48,949 bases of DNA from Escherichia phage BEU51: the sequence record OM632672.1; one strand, given 5' to 3'. Position 1 is the stretch's first letter, and each line of letters starts with the position of its first letter. The notes below the pieces were generated by a model, which had not been told where the DNA came from, searched no databases, and saw only the letters and a program-made list of their open reading frames with translations. The position numbers were made by a program, and so were the translations under genes. Positions 8,011 to 38,200 of the stretch are shown one piece after another.

Positions 8011-9225
8011 ATGCAAACTTTTACTGCCCGTGAATATCTGAAAATTGACATTGCTAATAACTATGGTCTGGATAAAGAAGACTGGGATGACCGTATTGCA
8101 TGGTTCGATAAGAATGAGAACAACCTACTGAACCTTGTAAGAGAAGCTGAAGAACCTGCCCTGTTCTATGCTGGTGTTAAAGCATGGATGGACGTTAAGG
8201 AAGGTAAGCCAATTGGTTATCCTGTTGCACTGGATGCTACATCATCTGGTCTACAGATTCTGGCTTGTCTGACTGGTGACCGTAGAGCTGCTGAACTATG
8301 TAACGTTGTTAACTATCGTGATGAAAGTGGCAAAGTTAAACGTCGTGATGCTTATACAGTTATCTACAACAAGATGCTGAACACTCTTGGTAAAGGTGCT
8401 CGTATCAAACGTAATGACTGTAAACAAGCAATCATGACTGCTCTGTATGGTTCAGAAGCTAAACCAAAGGAAGTATTTGGTGAAGGCATTATGCTCAACG
8501 TATTTGAAAGCACAATGAATGTGGAAGCACCTGCTGTATGGGAACTAAATAAATTCTGGTTACAGTGTGGTAATCCAGAGGCTTTCGTATATCACTGGGT
8601 AATGCCAGACGGCTTTAACGTATATATCAAAGTAATGGTAAATGAAGTGGAGACTGTCCACTTCTTAGATAAGCCATATGACTGTGTTCGTAAAGTACAA
8701 GGTACTGAAGAGAAGACTCGTATGCTATCTGCCAATACCACTCACTCTATTGATGGCCTAGTAGTACGTGAGTTGGTTCGTCGTTGTGACTATGACAAGA
8801 ACCAAATTGAATACATCAAGGCTCTTTGCAATGGTGAAGCTGAATATAAGGCTTCTGAAAAGAACTATGGCAAAGCAATGGAACTGTGGGGCTACTATGA
8901 GAAGACAGGATTCCTGACTGCTCGTATCTTTGATTATCTGGATTCTGAAACTATTAAATTAGTAAATACTCAGGACATTCTAGACCTGATTGAATCCATG
9001 CCTAAGAAGCCATTCCATGTACTCACTGTACACGACTGCTTCCGTTGCCTGCCTAACTATGGCAATGACATTCGTCGTCAGTACAACAACCTGTTAGCTA
9101 CTATTGCTAAAGGTGACTTACTATCTTTCATTATGAGCCAGGTTCTAGGCCAAGAAGTTACTATTGGCAAACTAGACCCGACTCTATGGGAAGATGTATT
9201 AGAAACCGAATACGCTCTATCTTAA
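8011..9225 (+). CDS. phage RNA polymerase II large subunit (T7-like catalytic part)
   Basis: PVALDATSSGLQILA resembles T7 RNAP motif A (DGSCSGIQH) and LTVHDCF resembles motif C (HDSF); ATG at 8011 with GAGGAA upstream gives 404 aa. Confidence 0.85.
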   Translation: MQTFTAREYLKIDIANNYGLDKEDWDDRIAWFDKNENNLLNLVREAEEPALFYAGVKAWMDVKEGKPIGYPVALDATSSGLQILACLTGDRRAAELCNVVNYRDESGKVKRRDAYTVIYNKMLNTLGKGARIKRNDCKQAIMTALYGSEAKPKEVFGEGIMLNVFESTMNVEAPAVWELNKFWLQCGNPEAFVYHWVMPDGFNVYIKVMVNEVETVHFLDKPYDCVRKVQGTEEKTRMLSANTTHSIDGLVVRELVRRCDYDKNQIEYIKALCNGEAEYKASEKNYGKAMELWGYYEKTGFLTARIFDYLDSETIKLVNTQDILDLIESMPKKPFHVLTVHDCFRCLPNYGNDIRRQYNNLLATIAKGDLLSFIMSQVLGQEVTIGKLDPTLWEDVLETEYALS

Positions 9226-9230
9226 TAACT

Positions 9231-9265
9231 AAGGCTATCCCTTCGGGGGTAGCCTTTATTTTTTT
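9231..9265 (+). terminator. rho-independent terminator
   Basis: AAGGCTATCCC-TTCG-GGGGTAGCCTT perfect 11-bp stem followed by TATTTTTTT. Confidence 0.8.
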
Positions 9266-9309
9266 AGTAAATCATAATGGATAGGCATTTAACCTATGAG
9301 GAAATTAAA

Positions 9310-10149
9310 ATGCCTGTTCTTAAAGTGATGTTCCATAAAGACACCAACGTAGCTACTGTACTGGATGCCAGTGGTAGCCTTAGTGATGGTTCCGTTGAGG
9401 TGGGTACTTTCCATCATCCTGATGAAACCTATCCTGATAGTGTAACTATCTATCATGGTGTACGTGACCTGCTGTATAAACGCAGTGCTAAAGACCCATC
9501 TCAAACTGCTTCTTACCCAAATAACATTATCAATATGCAAGTTATCAGTATTGATATGAAGGCAACTCCTCGCCTGATTTTGGGTACTGCATTACCTCGT
9601 GTAATCTCTACTATTGAAGGCAAAGATGTAACCTGGCATGTAGATGTTGCTGGTGGTAAAGCACCATTGACTTACAAGTGGCAGTTTAAAGCTAATACTG
9701 TAGGTGCTGCTTTCGCTGATATTGATTCCGGAGAGAATCCTACAGCTAAAACTGCAACTCTTATTAACCATGCAGTAACTGCTGAATCTGCTGGTACTTA
9801 TAAAGTCATCGTTACTGATGCTAACGGTACTACTATCGAGAGTTCTTCTCTGCTGGTTGTAGGAGTTCAGGAACCACCTGAAGTAGCTTCTATTGTTGCT
9901 TATCCAAGTCCACTGGCTCTATCAGTAGCTGATGATATTACTGATGGTAAAACAGTTAAATTTTCTTCCCTGCCTGCTGGCTCTTTGATTGGTACTCTGT
10001 CCATTAAGACCCAGCCTGACAGTGGTAAAGCTACTGCTGAGATTAGTGGTAATGTACTGACAGTTAAACCTGTAGCCGCAGGTGACACTACTGTAGTGGT
10101 CACCAACGGAACCAAGGAAGTAACTGTTACGGTTAATGTTACAGAATAA
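9310..10149 (+). CDS. Ig-like (Big_2-type) domain protein
   Basis: Two beta-rich segments typical of bacterial Ig-like domains (TYKVIVTDANGTTIESSSLLVV; GDTTVVVTNGTKEVTVTVNVTE); ATG at 9310 with GAGGAA RBS. Confidence 0.5.
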   Translation: MPVLKVMFHKDTNVATVLDASGSLSDGSVEVGTFHHPDETYPDSVTIYHGVRDLLYKRSAKDPSQTASYPNNIINMQVISIDMKATPRLILGTALPRVISTIEGKDVTWHVDVAGGKAPLTYKWQFKANTVGAAFADIDSGENPTAKTATLINHAVTAESAGTYKVIVTDANGTTIESSSLLVVGVQEPPEVASIVAYPSPLALSVADDITDGKTVKFSSLPAGSLIGTLSIKTQPDSGKATAEISGNVLTVKPVAAGDTTVVVTNGTKEVTVTVNVTE

Positions 10150-10170
10150 TGTGATTGTTTTTATGAATGT

Positions 10171-10194
10171 AGCCCTCCTTGTGGGGGCTTTTTA
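10171..10194 (+). terminator. rho-independent terminator
   Basis: AGCCCTC-CTTGT-GGGGGCT hairpin followed by TTTTT. Confidence 0.65.
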
Positions 10195-10218
10195 GTATCT
10201 ATAGGAGAGTAAATAATT

Positions 10219-10533
10219 ATGGCTAATAAGAACCGTCTTCGTGTATGGCATATCCCTCAAGTACCCGGCAAAGCCTTCTATGTTGAAGTAGATTCAGTAG
10301 AAGAAGGTGTACGTATCATTGATATACTAGCCAACTATGACCTATTCCAGTATGAGAACAATATCAAAGGTGATTACTGCAATGTCTCTGGTTTACAGAT
10401 GTATGATGAACATATCACTGATGATGAAATGGAAGAGATGGGTCTGACTGACCGTTGGGTAGACTGGTACTATGAAGATGACCAGAGCTTTTTTGATAAC
10501 CCGAAAGAGTATTTGAATAATCTCAAGAAGTAA
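10219..10533 (+). CDS. hypothetical acidic protein (104 aa)
   Basis: ORF from track, GGAGAG RBS. Confidence 0.6.
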   Translation: MANKNRLRVWHIPQVPGKAFYVEVDSVEEGVRIIDILANYDLFQYENNIKGDYCNVSGLQMYDEHITDDEMEEMGLTDRWVDWYYEDDQSFFDNPKEYLNNLKK

Positions 10534-10573: not shown

Positions 10574-10596
10574 GCCCTCCTATGGAGGGCTTTTTT
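10574..10596 (+). terminator. rho-independent terminator
   Basis: GCCCTC-CTATG-GAGGGC hairpin followed by TTTTTT. Confidence 0.7.
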
Positions 10597-15383: not shown

Positions 15384-15584
15384 ATGTCTATCTTTACTAC
15401 TAAGGTTAATGGTCAGAAAGTTACTGTTGTTGCTCGTAACGTAGCTTACGTTACTGAAAACAGTGAAGGCCGTGGTGTAATTACTTTTACTAACGGTGAT
15501 TCCATTGATACCCAGGTAGGTTATGACTCTATCCGTCGTAACGTAGCTAAAGCACTTGATGGTGCTAAAGACATCGCAGAGTAA
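15384..15584 (+). CDS. hypothetical small protein (66 aa)
   Basis: ORF from track; AAGGAAA RBS; TTAATTAA 9 nt upstream. Confidence 0.55.
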   Translation: MSIFTTKVNGQKVTVVARNVAYVTENSEGRGVITFTNGDSIDTQVGYDSIRRNVAKALDGAKDIAE

Positions 15585-15597
15585 GGTGTTTACAGTA

Positions 15598-15624
15598 ATG
15601 GGGCTATATAGTAGCCCCATTTAT
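15598..15624 (+). terminator. hairpin terminator (weak U-tract)
   Basis: ATGGGGCTA-TATAG-TAGCCCCAT followed by TTAT. Confidence 0.45.
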
Positions 15625-15659
15625 GGAAATTCCTTTCTCCATTGCTTAGTCCCAACTAT

Positions 15660-15682
15660 GCCCACTTTATGTGGGCTTTTTT
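15660..15682 (+). terminator. rho-independent terminator
   Basis: GCCCAC-TTTAT-GTGGGC followed by TTTTTT. Confidence 0.7.
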
Positions 15683-15697
15683 AATTAGAGACTATGT

Positions 15698-15940
15698 ATG
15701 AGCAAACTAGGTATACACGTTTACATAGATGAAGCCGAGAAGATATACCCCTATACATTATTTAGTTCCAGTGATTTACTTCAGATGAAGGTAAACTCCA
15801 TCATCGTAAACTACTGGTATAACGATAAGAATTGGGATTACTGGGCTGCACGACAGAAGAGTAAGAACAAGAAAGATATATTCAAAAGCAAATCAACTCC
15901 ACATATGTTTCCTTGGTATCACAGAAACCGGAGATATTGA
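15698..15940 (+). CDS. hypothetical protein (80 aa)
   Basis: ORF from track. Confidence 0.5.
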   Translation: MSKLGIHVYIDEAEKIYPYTLFSSSDLLQMKVNSIIVNYWYNDKNWDYWAARQKSKNKKDIFKSKSTPHMFPWYHRNRRY

Positions 15941-16401
15941 TGACAAGAATACCATTTTTAAAACCTAGAAAACGAACACCAAAGCTGTATCAAAAGACCT
16001 CAGAAGACGGTTTAGCCTTGAACCAGAAAGCTATTAAGGCCGTTAGTACACTGGTTCAAGGTAAACAGGATGCTGTTGCTTTACGTCTTGTTGTTGAGCA
16101 AATCTTAGTTGCTCTGACACTGGCTCAAGTAGCTAAACAAGAAGGTAAACAAGAAACCTGTAAAACAGCATTAGGTGCTTTGTACTGGTTGTATAAAGAC
16201 CTTGCTGACAACTTTGAAATGTCTATGGATAAGTGGCAGGGCATTTCTTGTGTACTTGCTCTTAGAGAAGGACAGGAATTACTGTCTACTCTACCAAAAG
16301 CAGAATTTAAACTAGCCTACACTGGAGCACATAAGATTGTTCTTGGTTCCAGTAAGGACATCTTTAACCACCTCAAGCTATTCAAGGCTTTCTATGATTA
16401 A
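15940..16401 (+). CDS. hypothetical protein (153 aa)
   Basis: ATG at 15940 overlaps the upstream stop (ATGA) with GGAGAT upstream. Confidence 0.55.
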   Translation: MTRIPFLKPRKRTPKLYQKTSEDGLALNQKAIKAVSTLVQGKQDAVALRLVVEQILVALTLAQVAKQEGKQETCKTALGALYWLYKDLADNFEMSMDKWQGISCVLALREGQELLSTLPKAEFKLAYTGAHKIVLGSSKDIFNHLKLFKAFYD

Positions 16402-17335
16402 TGCAAAAATCCTCGCTGATAGTATTACTCTTTCTGGTGACCGTCTGGTAACAATGGAGCTGGTTTATCCGCGTTTTATTCATTCAGAATTTATGACTCA
16501 CCGAGCACTTAATCGTAATGCTTCCAGTAGTCGTGCTATTCCTACCCAACGCCTTATTGAGCAAGTTCGTAATGAACCAGTAATGCCAGTACATTGGGGT
16601 AAGAACCAGAAAGGAATGCAGGCAAGTGAAGAACTCACTCCTATGGAGATTAAGGATGCTGAGTTCATTTGGGAAAATGCTGCCTCTGCTGCTGCTGTGT
16701 ATGCTGAACAACTTCGTCGTGGACAAGTACATAAGCAGATTGTTAATCGTATTCTGGAACCATTCACGCATATCCGTGTAGTAGTGACAGCTACTCAATG
16801 GAATAACTTCTTTGGTTTACGTATCCATCCCGATGCTCAACCAGAGATTTGTGAATTGGCTACTAAGATGAAGGAACAGTATGACCAATCAAAACCCCGT
16901 ACCTTGTTGGCTGGGGAATGGCATTTGCCGTACATTACTAATAGTGATTACCTCGATGCTTACGATTATTGCAAACATCAACGAATTACTCGTGATGAAC
17001 CAAGTAGTGATGAAATTAATTGCCTGTTAGTAAAAATCTCTGCTGCTCGTTGTGCCCGTGCTTCTTATAACAACTTTAAAGGCACTCCTTCTACTATCGA
17101 AGAAGACCTGCGTTTGTTCTCTAAATTGGTTGAAAGTAAGCCTGTTCACGCAAGTCCTACTGAACATCAAGCAACTCCTCAGCATGTAATGAGTAAAGGC
17201 TTAAATGAGCCTACTGACCCATCTACATGGGAAAATGGCATTAGCCACATGGACAGAAATTTACGTTTATACTCAGGTAATCTGTGTGGCTGGATTCAAT
17301 TCCGTAAGCTGCTTGCAGATGAATGCATCCACTAA
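16394..17335 (+). CDS. thyX: ThyX-like FAD-dependent thymidylate synthase
   Basis: SEFMTHRALNRNASSSR resembles the ThyX signature RHR-x7-S-x-R but with T in place of the first R; start overlaps the upstream stop. Confidence 0.55.
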   Translation: MINAKILADSITLSGDRLVTMELVYPRFIHSEFMTHRALNRNASSSRAIPTQRLIEQVRNEPVMPVHWGKNQKGMQASEELTPMEIKDAEFIWENAASAAAVYAEQLRRGQVHKQIVNRILEPFTHIRVVVTATQWNNFFGLRIHPDAQPEICELATKMKEQYDQSKPRTLLAGEWHLPYITNSDYLDAYDYCKHQRITRDEPSSDEINCLLVKISAARCARASYNNFKGTPSTIEEDLRLFSKLVESKPVHASPTEHQATPQHVMSKGLNEPTDPSTWENGISHMDRNLRLYSGNLCGWIQFRKLLADECIH

Positions 17336-17380
17336 GTAGGTCTTTTGTGGGTGTAGACCACTCATAATAAACTCCGCTAT

Positions 17381-17408
17381 TTGCCTCCTACATGGAGGCA
17401 ATTTTTTT
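17381..17408 (+). terminator. rho-independent terminator
   Basis: TTGCCTCC-TACA-TGGAGGCAA hairpin followed by TTTTTTT. Confidence 0.8.
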
Positions 17409-17432
17409 GATTCCATGTACATAGGAGGCCAT

Positions 17433-17666
17433 ATGGCTAAACCACGTAAATTTCGTATTAAGGGTAAGCCTGTAATGGGTAGTGCTGCTGGTCAGTCACA
17501 TGAGAAAGGAGACATTGTTTATGAATGCCTTCAGTATGATTACGGCGTTGCTCATGATGACACTCGTGCTACTGGTGTCCCACATACCTCAGTAACTCTT
17601 GAGGAAGATGGTAGCTACCCATTCTTCACTGTTCCTACTCATAACCTGGAAGAAATTCATGATTGA
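17433..17666 (+). CDS. hypothetical protein (77 aa)
   Basis: ATG at 17433 with AGGAGG upstream. Confidence 0.6.
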   Translation: MAKPRKFRIKGKPVMGSAAGQSHEKGDIVYECLQYDYGVAHDDTRATGVPHTSVTLEEDGSYPFFTVPTHNLEEIHD

Positions 17667-17985
17667 CCCAAATATCATCCATGCCAAAACAGGCGAATCC
17701 CATAAGCTGTCTGAATATTCCAAAGTAGAAGATATTGCAGTTTGTCCTGCAAATATTGCTTCTCTTTGTATCTGTATTGCAGAGCTATCTAAAGAACGCC
17801 AACTATGGCTATCTCCTAATAAAACAATGGTTCAGGCAGGTCTGGCAGAAGTACAACGTATGCTGGATGAATGGTCTGAAGACCAGATGTTCATTGATGG
17901 CAATGCAGAAGCAATAACCGATGACATGGCCTCTGATATGGCTGTGTTTGTATTACAAGCAATGGCTGAAAAGCGTAGTAGTTAA
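17659..17985 (+). CDS. hypothetical protein (108 aa)
   Basis: Internal ATG of the track ORF, overlapping the upstream stop. Confidence 0.5.
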   Translation: MIDPNIIHAKTGESHKLSEYSKVEDIAVCPANIASLCICIAELSKERQLWLSPNKTMVQAGLAEVQRMLDEWSEDQMFIDGNAEAITDDMASDMAVFVLQAMAEKRSS

Positions 17986-17989: not shown

Positions 17990-18009
17990 TAATTTACTGG
18001 AGAAAATTC

Positions 18010-20100
18010 GTGAAACGAAATTATCTCGCCATTATTGCCCTGTCAGTAGACAGTCGTAACCTCACCTTATGGCAACCAGATGGTTCTACTATGGTCATCC
18101 CCCAAGGGGATGCCCGTGTACCACGTATTGTTGCTGAAGCAAAAGAAAAGAATCTTACCCCAGGTAAGATTATCGAAGTGGATGTCACTATCGAAGCTCA
18201 GATTCGTCAGGAGTTTCTGGACGCTGAACGTGATACAGGTGGCTTTGTTAAATTCTTCCGTATTACTAAGAAGAGGCTACAAGAGTTCTTCTTAGGGGAA
18301 GAGGAAGAACAAGTCCCTTATGTATCACCTGTAGAGTTAGGTGCTAAACCCACTGCTTTCAATGCTTTTATTGCTAATGCTGTAGGCAAAACTCTTGCTG
18401 TACAACATGCATCATTAAAAGCACCTGAACCAGAAATGACAGTTACTCATGAGCGTTTTTACGGTAACTATGCTGTATGGATTACAGATGTAGACCCACG
18501 GAATCATCGTATTGAGGTTATTCATGTTATCCGTGAAATCTCAGGAAGAACCAGTGAATATGTCAATAACCTGCTGGCTCAACCAACCCCATTCAAAGTA
18601 TTTGATTGGCTCACAGAGACGCAGGCTAAAGAGTTTGTAAGACGTCTGAATAACACTCAGGGTGTTATCTCTGTCTATAACAAACTGGAAGACGGTATTC
18701 CTGCTAAGGTTGCTGTAAAGGCCACAAAGCCAACCAATAAGGAAAAGCTGGAAGCTGCATCAACTAAGCTGAAAGCTATGGGTGCTGTCGCTACTGATGC
18801 TTATGAGTTTCATACTGACTTGAATGAGAATGAAGAGACTATTGTAGCTGTAGTGAATGATAAGGTGGTTCCTGATGTTCAGAACCTACACCGCCACATC
18901 CGTCAATCTGCAAACCTGAAAGACTATAAAGGCTTTACTAAGTTCCTTGAACGTCTGTCTACTGTAATTGATAAACGTCGTCACTCTGTTGAAGACCTGA
19001 TGAAGTTTATGGAAAAAGGTGACCTGCCAATTGCAGATGATGGCTCCATTGTTATCTTCAAACGTCTGGAAAGCAAAGACAATCCTGAACATCTCAAAGA
19101 CGTAATGGATGATGTATTTGTTGATTGCCATTCTAGGAAGATTGAGCAATGCGTTGGTATGCGTGTAATGGTTAAAGAAAACCTTGTAGACCAGAACCGT
19201 CGTAAAGACTGTTCTCATGGTTTGCACGTAGCTTCTCTGCAATACATTCGTAATTTCTCAGGCAACGTAACCATTATTGGTAAAGTTGCTCCAGAGGATG
19301 TATTTGCAGTACCAGAATACGATGTTACTAAGATGCGTGTATCTGCTTATCACATCATTACCAAGCTACCTGATGCTATTCGTGACCATGTTAATAATGG
19401 CAATCCAATCTCCACCATTGAGGGTGGTACGGAAATCCTGAACATGGTTCTCAGTGGTAATCACCCTGAACCTTCCCGTCAGGTACTGGTTGGTGGTCAT
19501 TATGGAACCAATCTGACTTATTCAGAACTCACCCGTAATTATCTGGATGATGAGGAAGACATCGTTATTCCAGATGAACCAGTAATTAAGAAAACTGCCT
19601 TGAATATGGAAGAGAGCTTTACGGCAACTAATCCTAAAGCTGAACCAGTGAAGGCAACGGATGTTAAACCTATTAAGAAGACTAAGATGGAAATTCTTAA
19701 AGACCTTTGGAACCAGTTCCTGAAAGCAGAGACTTCTAATGAAGCTATTACACTGGCTGATGAAATCATTGCTGCTAAGGGCAAATGTAAGAAGTCATGG
19801 GCTTCTTTAGGCTTCAGTGGTGACATGGTTCAGAAACTGATTGATGCTCGTGCTAATAAACCTAAGCCAGAAAAAGTAGTCAAACAGGATAAAACTGTTG
19901 CACCTAAGAAAACTACAATCACTCGTAGTCGGAATGCTGATGTTATTCGTAGCTATCTGAATGACAAAGGTATGTCTGATTACTGTAAAGCTCATGCCAT
20001 TCACGATGTGAAACGTGCTGCTAAGAAATCTTATGCTGCACTGGGTCTGACTCCTGAAGAATGCAGCCAAATTGATAAACTGAAGCATCATTTGAAGTAA
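18010..20100 (+). CDS. large hypothetical protein (696 aa)
   Basis: Track ORF starting at GTG with GGAGAA upstream; no motif recognised by eye. Confidence 0.6.
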   Translation: MKRNYLAIIALSVDSRNLTLWQPDGSTMVIPQGDARVPRIVAEAKEKNLTPGKIIEVDVTIEAQIRQEFLDAERDTGGFVKFFRITKKRLQEFFLGEEEEQVPYVSPVELGAKPTAFNAFIANAVGKTLAVQHASLKAPEPEMTVTHERFYGNYAVWITDVDPRNHRIEVIHVIREISGRTSEYVNNLLAQPTPFKVFDWLTETQAKEFVRRLNNTQGVISVYNKLEDGIPAKVAVKATKPTNKEKLEAASTKLKAMGAVATDAYEFHTDLNENEETIVAVVNDKVVPDVQNLHRHIRQSANLKDYKGFTKFLERLSTVIDKRRHSVEDLMKFMEKGDLPIADDGSIVIFKRLESKDNPEHLKDVMDDVFVDCHSRKIEQCVGMRVMVKENLVDQNRRKDCSHGLHVASLQYIRNFSGNVTIIGKVAPEDVFAVPEYDVTKMRVSAYHIITKLPDAIRDHVNNGNPISTIEGGTEILNMVLSGNHPEPSRQVLVGGHYGTNLTYSELTRNYLDDEEDIVIPDEPVIKKTALNMEESFTATNPKAEPVKATDVKPIKKTKMEILKDLWNQFLKAETSNEAITLADEIIAAKGKCKKSWASLGFSGDMVQKLIDARANKPKPEKVVKQDKTVAPKKTTITRSRNADVIRSYLNDKGMSDYCKAHAIHDVKRAAKKSYAALGLTPEECSQIDKLKHHLK

Positions 20101-35263: not shown

Positions 35264-38200
35264 TTAGTGGGTAAGGTTGAACCAAGGATTGAGGGTAGGT
35301 GCTCTTAGTCCTTGTCCGAAGCCTAATGAATAATCCAGTCTTCCTTCAGCCAGCATGGTTAACATGTTGTCCTGAATTGGTAGACCTACATTACCAAACA
35401 TGGCAGGAGCGGGTACTACTGTAGCAATCAGAGAATGTACTGGGTTGTTTCTAATCATGCTCATAGCAACTTTAATGGAACGAATCTTAAAGTTGTAGAA
35501 CCACATCAGACCCATGCTTTCCATATAACCACGGAAACGACCAGGCAATCTGTCATAGTTAACAAACTCTTCAGTTACTTGACCTAATGCTTCAGAAGAA
35601 GATTTTTTCTTACGTTTCACTAAATCATCATAGATGATGGCTTTAGCAATGAAGTCTGAATACTCTACTGTTTTCTGGATACCCTGGAACAGAGCAGTGT
35701 CCTTAGCAATAAGAGCATAACGGCCAGCATTACGTACTTTTTCTGGAAGTTTATTAGCAAGTTTTTCCATGTACTCATGAATCTTACCTTCAGCTACTAA
35801 CAGGTCATCACGACTAATACCAGCATCAGCAATAGAAGAGAACTCACCTGCTTCAATCAAAGGCCAGATGCTCATACGACGATGGCTATCAGTAATAGAT
35901 TGAATCTCGGTTTTAAGTTTACGAACCAGATTAGGATTGCCTTCAGCAGCACGTAATTCTGCTTCTGCATCAATCTGACGTAAACGAGATTTAATGTACT
36001 GATTAATCTCTGACGTCTTACGAGGAATGTTCACAGCAATATCCTTAACAGGAACACCACGTCCAATCATCTGGTAGATGTTAGCAAGGAAGTTAACTGC
36101 CGGTACTACAACAGATTTAACAACAATTACTGTCTTAGCATCCTTCACCAAATTCTGAATGGTATTTTCAGCATTCATTACTACATGATATGCCTTATTA
36201 CCAAATGCACCGAGGAACATCTTCTTAACAGTATCAAGGGTGCTAGATGACCAACGAGAGTTACCAGTCCATACATCACCAATAGATGCAGCACGATAGC
36301 CAAGTGCATCATTCAGCATATCCCTACGAACCCATAACTCATCTTTACCAAAGAGTTCTTCAGCCTTACGACGAGTCTCAATGTTCATCAGGTTAATTGC
36401 ATCAGCCAGTACTGGGTCATCAATTTTACCTAACAGGTTTACATATTGAGATTTATTAGCATTAGAGTCTTTAATGTCTTTCTCATACATAGCATGTAAT
36501 TGCTCGATGAGAATGTCATTAAAACGTTGTGCTTTAGCCTCTTCCACCTGACGACCACGCCATACACCAACCATCTTAGCAAAATGATTGTCTTGGTTTA
36601 GATGCTTCAACATATTAGGGTCAACGGATTGCTCATAAGCAACTACCTGACCTTTGCTGTTATAAATTGGCATCAGTGGTTCACGTCCACGTTCACCTTT
36701 AGCCAGAGCTTTGGTAATACGCTCTACGGTTGGTTTGTCAGTAATACGACCAGCAACCATAGTACCTAACGTAAAGCCAGTACCAATATCCACGCCACCA
36801 GCAGTATTACGAACGTTCTGAAGAATACCTTGAGAGTATGGGGCACGGGCAGCTACTGGGCTGAAGTAATAACCTTTAGAACCAGTACGGAAACCAGTGC
36901 TTCCCTGATAAGTACCAATACGAGTAAAAGATTGGCTATTTAACTTAGCAAACTCTTTATCGTCAGCAATAATCAAATTCACACCTTGCTGGTTCTCTAC
37001 AGGGATATAGCCCTTAAAGTGATTCAGCAAAGTACGGTTATCACCTTTAGCTTTACGCATCTCTTCAGTACGTTGACCCACCATATAAGCAATGGAGAAC
37101 TCCATACCTTCCACTTCTGATTGAGCCAATTCTGACAAAAGGTCGCGGTCAGACTTATTCATCAATTCCAGAGAGTACAAAGTAATGAGCTTATCAATAG
37201 CAGCTACATCTGCCACAGGACCATTAGTAATACGTTCACCTAACAAACGACTAATAGCATGGGCATTACGAAGGAGGTTATTACCTACTTCCCCTGTAAT
37301 CATGTATTGAGCCAATTGCTTAGATTTCTTCTGAACCAGATTCCAGTTTCTACCTGCTTGGTTCTGAATCTCTTTTTCCAGAGTAGAGATTTCATCTTTC
37401 ACTTTCTTAAATGAAGAGAGTAAATCTCTAATTTCAGCCATGCTCATAGTTTCACGTAGAACAGCTAAATCTGTTTTACCTAAACCAGTATGCATTGCAG
37501 ACCACTCGGTATCAGTCAGTTTACGAGAGAACTTACCAGCAATGACTGTAGGTAAATGCTCACGGAATTGTTGACGGTCTTGAGAAATCTGGCTCTTAAC
37601 CAATTTGATTAAGTCATAGACATTGGCATTAGTCTTAGTACGGCCAACAATGTCATTAACTAAGTCATGGAAAGGTTGCCATACTTTACCCTGGTTCATA
37701 GCAGTCATAATACCCTGAGCCACTATTTCACCTTGTTTTTCAGATGCAATAGCAGCAGTCAGTTTAGCCAGATGAGCAACACCTTTAGCAGCTACATTAG
37801 AAGGGTTAGCAATTACCTTATCTGCCTTTTCAATAACAGTTTCAGATAACCGTTCAATGCTATCCGTTACGTACTGATTAGCACGGTCAATGAAATTACC
37901 GGTAGGGGTTGCTACAGCATCATAGAAAGACTCTCGTTTCAGAGCAGCAGCCATGATTGTTTCTGACAGAGCATCAATACTGTCCTGAACATTAGTAGCT
38001 TTCTGGTCACCAGCCATACGACGGTTCAGAGATTCCATTACCTGAGTGCCTGCATTGGTAAGCAGAGTATCTACATCATTACCTAATTTCTTATCTGCTT
38101 TAGGTACAGGCATTTCTTTAATGATTGAACGTAGTTCTTCATTAACCATAGCCAGACCCAGGAATGTAGGTAACAGACTGGTTCTGCCTTTGGCATCTAC

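Follow-up and report, generated by a model that had tools for sequence, protein, structure and literature searches.

Organization of the locus

The window analyzed here is a stretch of 48,949 nucleotides from Escherichia phage BEU51 (sequence record OM632672.1). In its early/middle region, a single gene for a protein with immunoglobulin-like (Ig-like) domains is located between two RNAPII subunit genes and a superinfection-exclusion gene (Table 1). The boundaries and length of this gene and its place directly after the RNAPII genes, as given in a preliminary description of this DNA, proved correct. The same is true of its orientation opposite to the late block, since the late genes of the window (vRNAP, the 66 kDa protein, the 16.5 kDa protein, and the start of gp53) lie on the minus strand from position 35264. 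The genes gp19 and gp20, found near gp18, are annotated as a membrane protein and a lipoprotein.

Table 1. Features of the gp17 locus in the window; the borders of domains DI, DII, and DIII are estimates
Feature	Position	Strand	Characteristics and evidence
gp15 (N4 RNAP1), RNAPII subunit	7154-7963	+	PHROG 2166, E = 1.4e-118
gp16 (N4 RNAP2), RNAPII subunit	8011-9225	+	8011 is the equivalent of the N4-annotated start; PHROG 2051, E = 3.5e-172; Pfam RNA_pol
Upstream terminator-like hairpin and T-run	9231-9256, T-run to ~9265	+	11-bp stem, UUCG loop; between gp16 and gp17
Shine-Dalgarno sequence GAGG	9298-9301	+	8 nt before ATG 9310; read from the sequence
gp17 coding sequence	9310-10149	+	ATG 9310, TAA 10147-10149; 279 aa plus stop; ORF, N4 annotation, PDB and PHROG matches
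Domain DI (~aa 1-88)	9310-9573	+	N-terminal, capsid-binding; no Pfam match
Domain DII (~aa 89-186)	9574-9867	+	Classical Ig-type beta-sandwich; sub-threshold Ig_3/I-set match at aa 96-182
Domain DIII (~aa 190-279)	9877-10146	+	C-terminal, Ig-like, solvent-exposed, flexible; all-beta in the AlphaFold2 model
Downstream terminator-like hairpin and T5	10171-10189, element to 10194	+	7-bp stem with one G-U pair; between gp17 and gp18
gp18, P22 gp17-like superinfection-exclusion protein	10219-10533	+	PF17420, E = 2.4e-56; PHROG 1510; N4 annotation

The two hairpins flanking the gene had both been described as strong terminators. This holds for the upstream one, a textbook intrinsic terminator with a folding energy of -18.9 kcal/mol (z = -4.27; 0 of 200 shuffled sequences folded as well), while the downstream one is only moderate (-11.4 kcal/mol, z = -0.8; 42 of 200 shuffles folded as well). 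In the reference genome of coliphage N4, the downstream stem is a perfect 7 bp, and each of the flanking hairpins differs by one base from that of this isolate. Hairpins with T-runs were also found 3' of many plus-strand genes in this region, so that bracketing by terminators is a general trait of the early/middle region in N4 rather than one peculiar to gp17. The gp18 gene is likewise a single gene between two such elements (10171-10189 and 10574-10590). A gene of the gp18 type follows the decoration gene in phage Moo19 too; this is not the case in EC1-UPM, KP8, and Ea9-2.

Three short GC-rich intergenic hairpins were found on the plus strand in the leftmost part of the window, at 2641-2653 (GTTGC-TTC-GCAAC), 3110-3122 (GAAGC-TCC-GCTTC), and 7098-7112 (AGCTGC-TCC-GCAGCT), the last of them just before gp15. 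The second and the third are each followed by CTTTTGG. We take these hairpins to resemble three early hairpin promoters of the N4 vRNAP. Four tRNA genes, for Asn-GTT, Ser-TGA, Thr-TGT, and Pro-TGG, are encoded on the plus strand at 33193-33871, within a stretch of about 1.5 kb devoid of long ORFs between the equivalents of gp47 and gp48; ARAGORN and Rfam agree on all four.

The order of the record itself is unusual at its left end. Positions 1-2526 represent a complete rIIA-like gene (N4 15460-17985), cut exactly at its ATG and its stop codon and placed before the N4 left end, which starts at about position 2553 of the window; the junction is at 2526/2527. The native rIIA site, at the junction 18009-18011, reads ...AAAATTCG followed directly by TGAAACG. 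The rIIB gene (18010-20100) hence starts with GTG, versus an ATG overlapping the rIIA stop codon in N4. Records of the BEU5 type are simple circular permutations starting at rIIA, and the window is not colinear with them. Since exactly the coding sequence was excised, the arrangement looks like an artefact of record assembly or re-ordering and not like biology. A second, different non-native rIIA junction occurs in record OM632669.1 (Escherichia phage BEU42, positions 1-3625), where rIIA (1-2526) is fused directly to the sequence starting 8 nt 5' of the gp17 ATG (record position 2527 corresponds to window position 9302).

Identification of the gene as N4 gp17

Translation was assigned to start at 9310 on the basis of the Shine-Dalgarno sequence, the N4 annotation, the chains deposited in PDB, and the N-termini of homologues. 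The motif GAGGA is invariant 5' of the homologous gene in N4, Moo19, KP8, EC1-UPM, and pSb-1, the phages whose upstream regions were compared. The PDB chains of gp17 begin with MPVLKV, and all 29 aligned homologues start with M-P-x-L-K, residues Met1, Pro2, Leu4, and Lys5 being conserved. An alternative start at ATG 9277, which gives a 290-aa ORF in the mechanical ORF list, was rejected; it has no Shine-Dalgarno sequence and is neither the start annotated in N4 nor that of the PDB chains.

In megablast searches of the phage collection, region 9000-10400 was 100% identical to several Escherichia phage BEU isolates and 98.9% identical at the nucleotide level to coliphage N4 (EF056009 / NC_008720), where it spans the genes labelled "RNAP2", "32 kDa protein", and "gp18". 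The gene at 9310-10149 corresponds to N4 positions 6759-7598, also with 98.9% nucleotide identity. It differs from the N4 reference (EF056009) at 11 nucleotides, all of them in third codon positions and synonymous, and there is no amino acid difference. The exclusively synonymous nature of these changes indicates purifying selection on a functional protein.

The PDB sequence search yielded chain J of entry 9e99, aligned over residues 1-279 with 279 of 279 amino acids identical and no mismatch (E = 8.6e-178); the identical 279-residue chain, named "32 kDa protein", is present in entries 9e99, 9lbz, and 9ld7. The whole protein (residues 1-279) also matched PHROG 2973, "Hoc-like head decoration", with E = 4.5e-95. 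In N4, the gp17 product (YP_950495 / ABK54386) is labelled "32 kDa protein, 32 kD VP" in GenBank and "Hoc-like head decoration" in RefSeq. Comparison with the solved virion protein, together with the synonymous-only changes, puts the coding status of the ORF far beyond chance. Positions 9310-10149 encode gp17, the decoration ("cement") protein on the capsid of coliphage N4; this is N4 gp17 itself and not merely a relative. The preliminary description had rightly pointed to an Ig-like protein of the capsid-decorating kind and had not recognized it as gp17. Nothing we saw contradicts this identity or the structural role.

Domain composition

According to the published structure, gp17 is monomeric and built from three beta-rich Ig-like domains, DI to DIII, with flexible linkers between them (PMC11768535). 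An AlphaFold2 model built from 30 sequences (mean pLDDT 83) also contained three beta-rich units. DII and DIII were modelled as confident all-beta units at residues 90-185 (pLDDT ~83-94) and 194-278 (pLDDT 86-97), respectively. DI was represented by three strands (residues 3-35) plus a helix in a unit covering residues 3-56 with a pLDDT of about 65-77, and the loop at residues 69-83 was below 50. The model is thus consistent with three tandem Ig-like domains, with DI predicted at lower confidence.

The best Foldseek matches of the model in PDB were, in order, the N4 capsid (9e99_K/J), the N4 unique vertex (9lbz_q), and the decoration protein of Moo19 (9d7z). They were followed by proteins with tandem classical Ig domains of the I-set/V-set type, such as titin I-band fragments, JAM, and Fabs, with E-values from 1e-7 to 1e-9.

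Pfam profiles gave weaker signals. At residues 96-182, Ig_3 scored 23.4 bits with the whole protein and 24.9 bits (E = 3e-5) with DII alone, against a cut-off of 30, and I-set scored 17-19 bits against a cut-off of 23.7. Scanned separately, DI had no Pfam match, and DIII had none at E<=0.1. For most homologues with 63-72% identity, a precomputed assignment to PF13927 (Ig_3) exists. The sub-threshold Pfam scores of gp17 are outweighed by the solved structure, the AlphaFold and Foldseek results, and these assignments in homologues. Judged by its profile matches, the recognizable Ig domain appears to be of the Ig_3/I-set type.

The protein had been described as containing two Big_2-like segments. 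The "Ig-like" label is correct and established by experiment, namely by the solved structure; the number of domains is three, and the Big_2 assignment was rejected. The Big_2 profile (PF02368) matched neither the whole protein at E<=1 nor DI, DII, or DIII separately at E<=10. The search for an Ig-like profile suggested in the same description gave only Ig_3/I-set matches on DII below the Pfam gathering score, a borderline outcome, and no match for Big_2. The Big_2 label should not spread further.

Position on the capsid and function

The protein has been annotated as "32 kD VP" since the genome deposit, was seen on the capsid in 2008, and was solved at 2.45 Å in 2024. In the 2.45 Å cryo-EM structure of the T=9 N4 capsid, three copies of gp17 are present per asymmetric unit (PMC11768535). 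They lie flat on the exterior of the mature HK97-fold capsid, around the quasi-2-fold axes, with DI on every quasi-3-fold axis and DII resting on the P-domain of a subunit of the major capsid protein (PMC11768535). DIII makes little contact with the capsid and was too mobile to build, so that an AlphaFold3 model was fitted as a rigid body instead (PMC11768535). The virion contains 175 copies of gp17 (PMC3715699). Identity to the chains modelled in three cryo-EM entries of N4 indicates that gp17 of this isolate should likewise be located on the outside of the mature capsid.

The authors of the structure see gp17 as a reinforcement of the capsid and consider a non-structural, accessory role of DIII possible; the evidence for capsid stabilization cited there comes partly from unpublished mutant data (PMC11768535). 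In a review, gp17 is said to have no effect on infectivity and to provide stability under harsh conditions, and its functions are given as "stability, host adhesion"; the same review lists it both as stabilizing and among the Ig-like proteins thought to add little stability (PMC7602432). Therefore, gp17 is a non-essential protein reported to stabilize or protect the capsid under harsh conditions, and an adhesion-type accessory role has been suggested for its exposed domain. The protein, its fold, copy number, and site on the capsid are all published, and its placement in the genome is no new discovery.

Conserved placement in Schitoviridae

A tblastn search with gp17 returned 407 phage records. 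Most of the protein was covered in 82 of them, and those shown belong to Schitoviridae; the other records contain unrelated structural proteins whose match is limited to DII, the Ig domain. The matches to KP8, phiEaP-8, Zuri, and PB119 span only residues 1 to ~56-104. Homologues vary in length from 171 to 279 aa, and in distant genera recognizable conservation is limited to the capsid-binding domain DI.

We inspected the gene neighbourhoods in N4 (Enquatrovirus), EC1-UPM and pSb-1 (both Gamaleyavirus), Moo19 (Moovirus), KP8 (Kaypoctavirus), Ea9-2 (Johnsonvirus), phiEaP-8 (Yonginvirus), PB119 (Pokkenvirus), and Zuri (Zurivirus). In all eight genera with an annotated RNAP2, the homologue is located on the same strand, zero to three small ORFs after the gene for the large RNAPII subunit; this count rests on the annotation of RNAP2, and the genes on either side in pSb-1 carry no label other than hypothetical protein. 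A hairpin with a T-run was present 25-55 nt 5' of the start codon of the homologue in every relative examined, and another one 3' of the gene in all seven phages whose downstream region was read. Some Schitoviridae, namely LUZ7/LIT1/PEV2, CB1, and DEV, have been reported to have no gp17 homologue or capsid decoration.

Consequently, gp17 is an accessory single-gene cassette with a fixed address after the RNAPII genes, bounded by terminators and conserved in the genera checked that carry it. The preliminary description regarded this location as unexpected for a capsid decoration. It is odd in general terms, the gene being separate from those of other virion proteins, but it is the norm among the checked relatives that possess the gene. 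The puzzle of an Ig-like protein encoded among early genes is thereby resolved: it is a known decoration protein whose gene occupies a conserved place in those decorated Schitoviridae that were examined. The decoration gene soc of phage T4 is also located away from the main head-gene cluster, and decoration genes apart from the structural block are therefore not unprecedented.

Public records annotate gp17 homologues inconsistently and often wrongly. Among the labels are "RNA polymerase" for gp27 of Pseudomonas phage Zuri (locus L008, 3501-4259), "tail tube protein" for the homologue in the Xanthomonas virus PB119 (locus L007, 3501-4292), "neck whiskers protein / kappa-carrageenase" for that in Klebsiella phage KP8 (locus L006, 3501-4016), and "fibritin neck whisker protein" for those in the N4-type records AlfredRasser, PMBT57, and AL25. 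The N-terminal domain by which the N4 decoration protein binds the capsid is common to all these proteins.

Probable class of expression

The N4 genes gp15 and gp16 are early genes transcribed by the injected vRNAP, and the host RNAP, with N4SSB, transcribes the late genes. Early and middle transcription in N4 resists rifampicin, and late transcription is sensitive to it. All mapped RNAPII (middle) transcripts are located in the leftmost half of the genome on the rightward strand, and the minimal promoter described in this transcription context is an AT-rich region from -7 to +2. Because gp17 lies in the leftmost half and on the rightward strand, it is most likely a middle-class gene, as far as position and strand can indicate. 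The strong terminator after gp16 would end the early transcripts made by vRNAP, and gp17 would then need either its own start just after this terminator or read-through. As a middle-class transcript, it would be made ahead of or alongside the late capsid genes. An early pool of gp17 would be tolerable since a decoration protein binds only finished, expanded capsids.

A more specific proposal is that RNAPII transcribes gp17, in a rifampicin-resistant manner, beginning at the post-gp16 terminator or immediately 3' of it; among the virion proteins, gp17 alone would then be produced by another polymerase than the others and ahead of them. We regard this as doubtful. Given the conserved placement in eight genera, the temporal uncoupling of gp17 may itself be selected. 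If true, the reasons for such selection could be a pre-made pool for the very large burst of N4 or a role of the protein, or of free DIII, prior to assembly. In the literature on transcription of N4 and on Schitoviridae, including PMC4496689, PMC7145618, PMC9163698, PMC13478754, PMC13434306, and PMC7650795, we found no report on the timing of gp17 transcription or on the polymerase responsible.

Scanning of the region 5' of gp17 for sigma-70-type promoters revealed only one match, at 9282-9311, which overlaps the start codon and is unusable. Two further candidate promoter motifs were rejected by counts in the window. The motif TTTTTAGTA, present after both hairpins flanking gp17, occurred 22 times with one mismatch allowed, versus 24.4 expected in shuffled sequences, and TTTATTTTTT was found 3 times versus 9.3 expected.

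Alternatively, gp17 may be a true late gene, its ATG preceded by a weak promoter of the sigma-70 type that lies downstream of the terminator and is activated by N4SSB. A -10-like CATAAT is present at 9272-9277, TTCATAAT also occurs 5' of the KP8 homologue, and gamaleyaviruses carry TATACT/ACTAAT at the equivalent site. N4 late promoters are only remotely sigma-70-like, about 20% of the late start sites in LUZ7 are on the early/middle strand, and the simplest logic for a decoration protein would be expression together with the partner it binds. However, the consensus scan did not report CATAAT, and no acceptable -35 element accompanies it. Moreover, the -10-like element found in N4, KP8, and gamaleyaviruses is deleted in Moo19, where only ~20 nt separate the T-run from the ATG and leave no room for a promoter, yet the protein is present on the Moo19 virion. 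Expression as a late gene is therefore, in our estimate, the less likely but still a serious alternative. The linkage to RNAPII genes, with RNAP2 adjacency conserved in the eight genera checked, could also reflect a second, non-virion function of gp17 in the early/middle phase, for example at the cell envelope, where the neighbouring products of gp18 (superinfection exclusion), gp19, and gp20 act; DIII, nearly free of capsid contacts and with a role called uncertain (PMC11768535), would be a candidate for it. Against this, gp17 has no signal peptide or other non-structural feature that we could see, distant relatives conserve the capsid-binding DI and not DIII, and the phages that have no such gene (LUZ7/LIT1, CB1, DEV) use the same transcription programme, which makes such a function very improbable.

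The least plausible alternative is that the ORF represents a bacterial Ig-like adhesin module of the Big_2 type, derived from a bacterial surface protein, instead of a dedicated capsid protein. The sequence is indeed beta-rich, and Big_2 is the family of many Ig-like domains in phages. Nevertheless, the Big_2 profile recognized no part of the protein, its structural neighbours beyond phage capsids are the classical I-set/V-set tandem Ig proteins, and the identical sequence has been built into the N4 capsid map, so that we give this origin next to no credence. The explanation built on gp17 identity, the capsid role, and the conserved placement is almost certainly right, with middle-class expression as its less certain, inferred part.

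Comparison with known decoration proteins

The gene of this isolate and N4 gp17 have the same 279-aa product, the same neighbours, strand, and flanking hairpins; the differences are confined to the 11 synonymous nucleotides and one base in each hairpin. The next closest characterized protein is gp28 of Shigella phage Moo19 (PDB 9d7z), an Ig-like protein with full-length similarity to gp17 (E = 1.1e-89); structurally aligned, the two are 58% identical. The protein appears in the list of virion proteins and was modelled on the capsid (PMC11654681). As with gp17, RNAP2 immediately precedes its gene, and a P22 gp17-like superinfection-exclusion gene follows. Unlike gp17, gp28 consists of 273 aa, only residues 1-183 were modelled, and the upstream untranslated region is much shorter. 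The binding sites also differ: gp28 is found at the quasi-sixfold axes in Moo19 (PMC11654681), whereas gp17 occupies quasi-2-fold and quasi-3-fold positions in N4 (PMC11768535).

The Hoc (highly immunogenic outer capsid) protein of phage T4 resembles gp17 in being a non-essential capsid decoration of tandem Ig-like domains. However, Hoc projects from the hexamer centre and has a separate capsid-binding domain, while gp17 lies flat over the interfaces between capsomers and uses DI and DII for binding (PMC11768535, PMC7602432). The PDB search revealed no direct sequence match between gp17 and Hoc, and "Hoc-like" is for gp17 an annotation label only, used by PHROG and RefSeq. Two PDB chains named "Decoration protein", 8zvi_a and 5lxk_A, showed a weak, marginal sequence match to DII (E ~1e-3). 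Presumably, both represent pb10 of phage T5. This protein is grouped with gp17 among the Ig-like decorations, but chains of the pb10 type combine one Ig domain with a distinct capsid-binding domain and are attached to the centre of the hexamer (PMC7602432).
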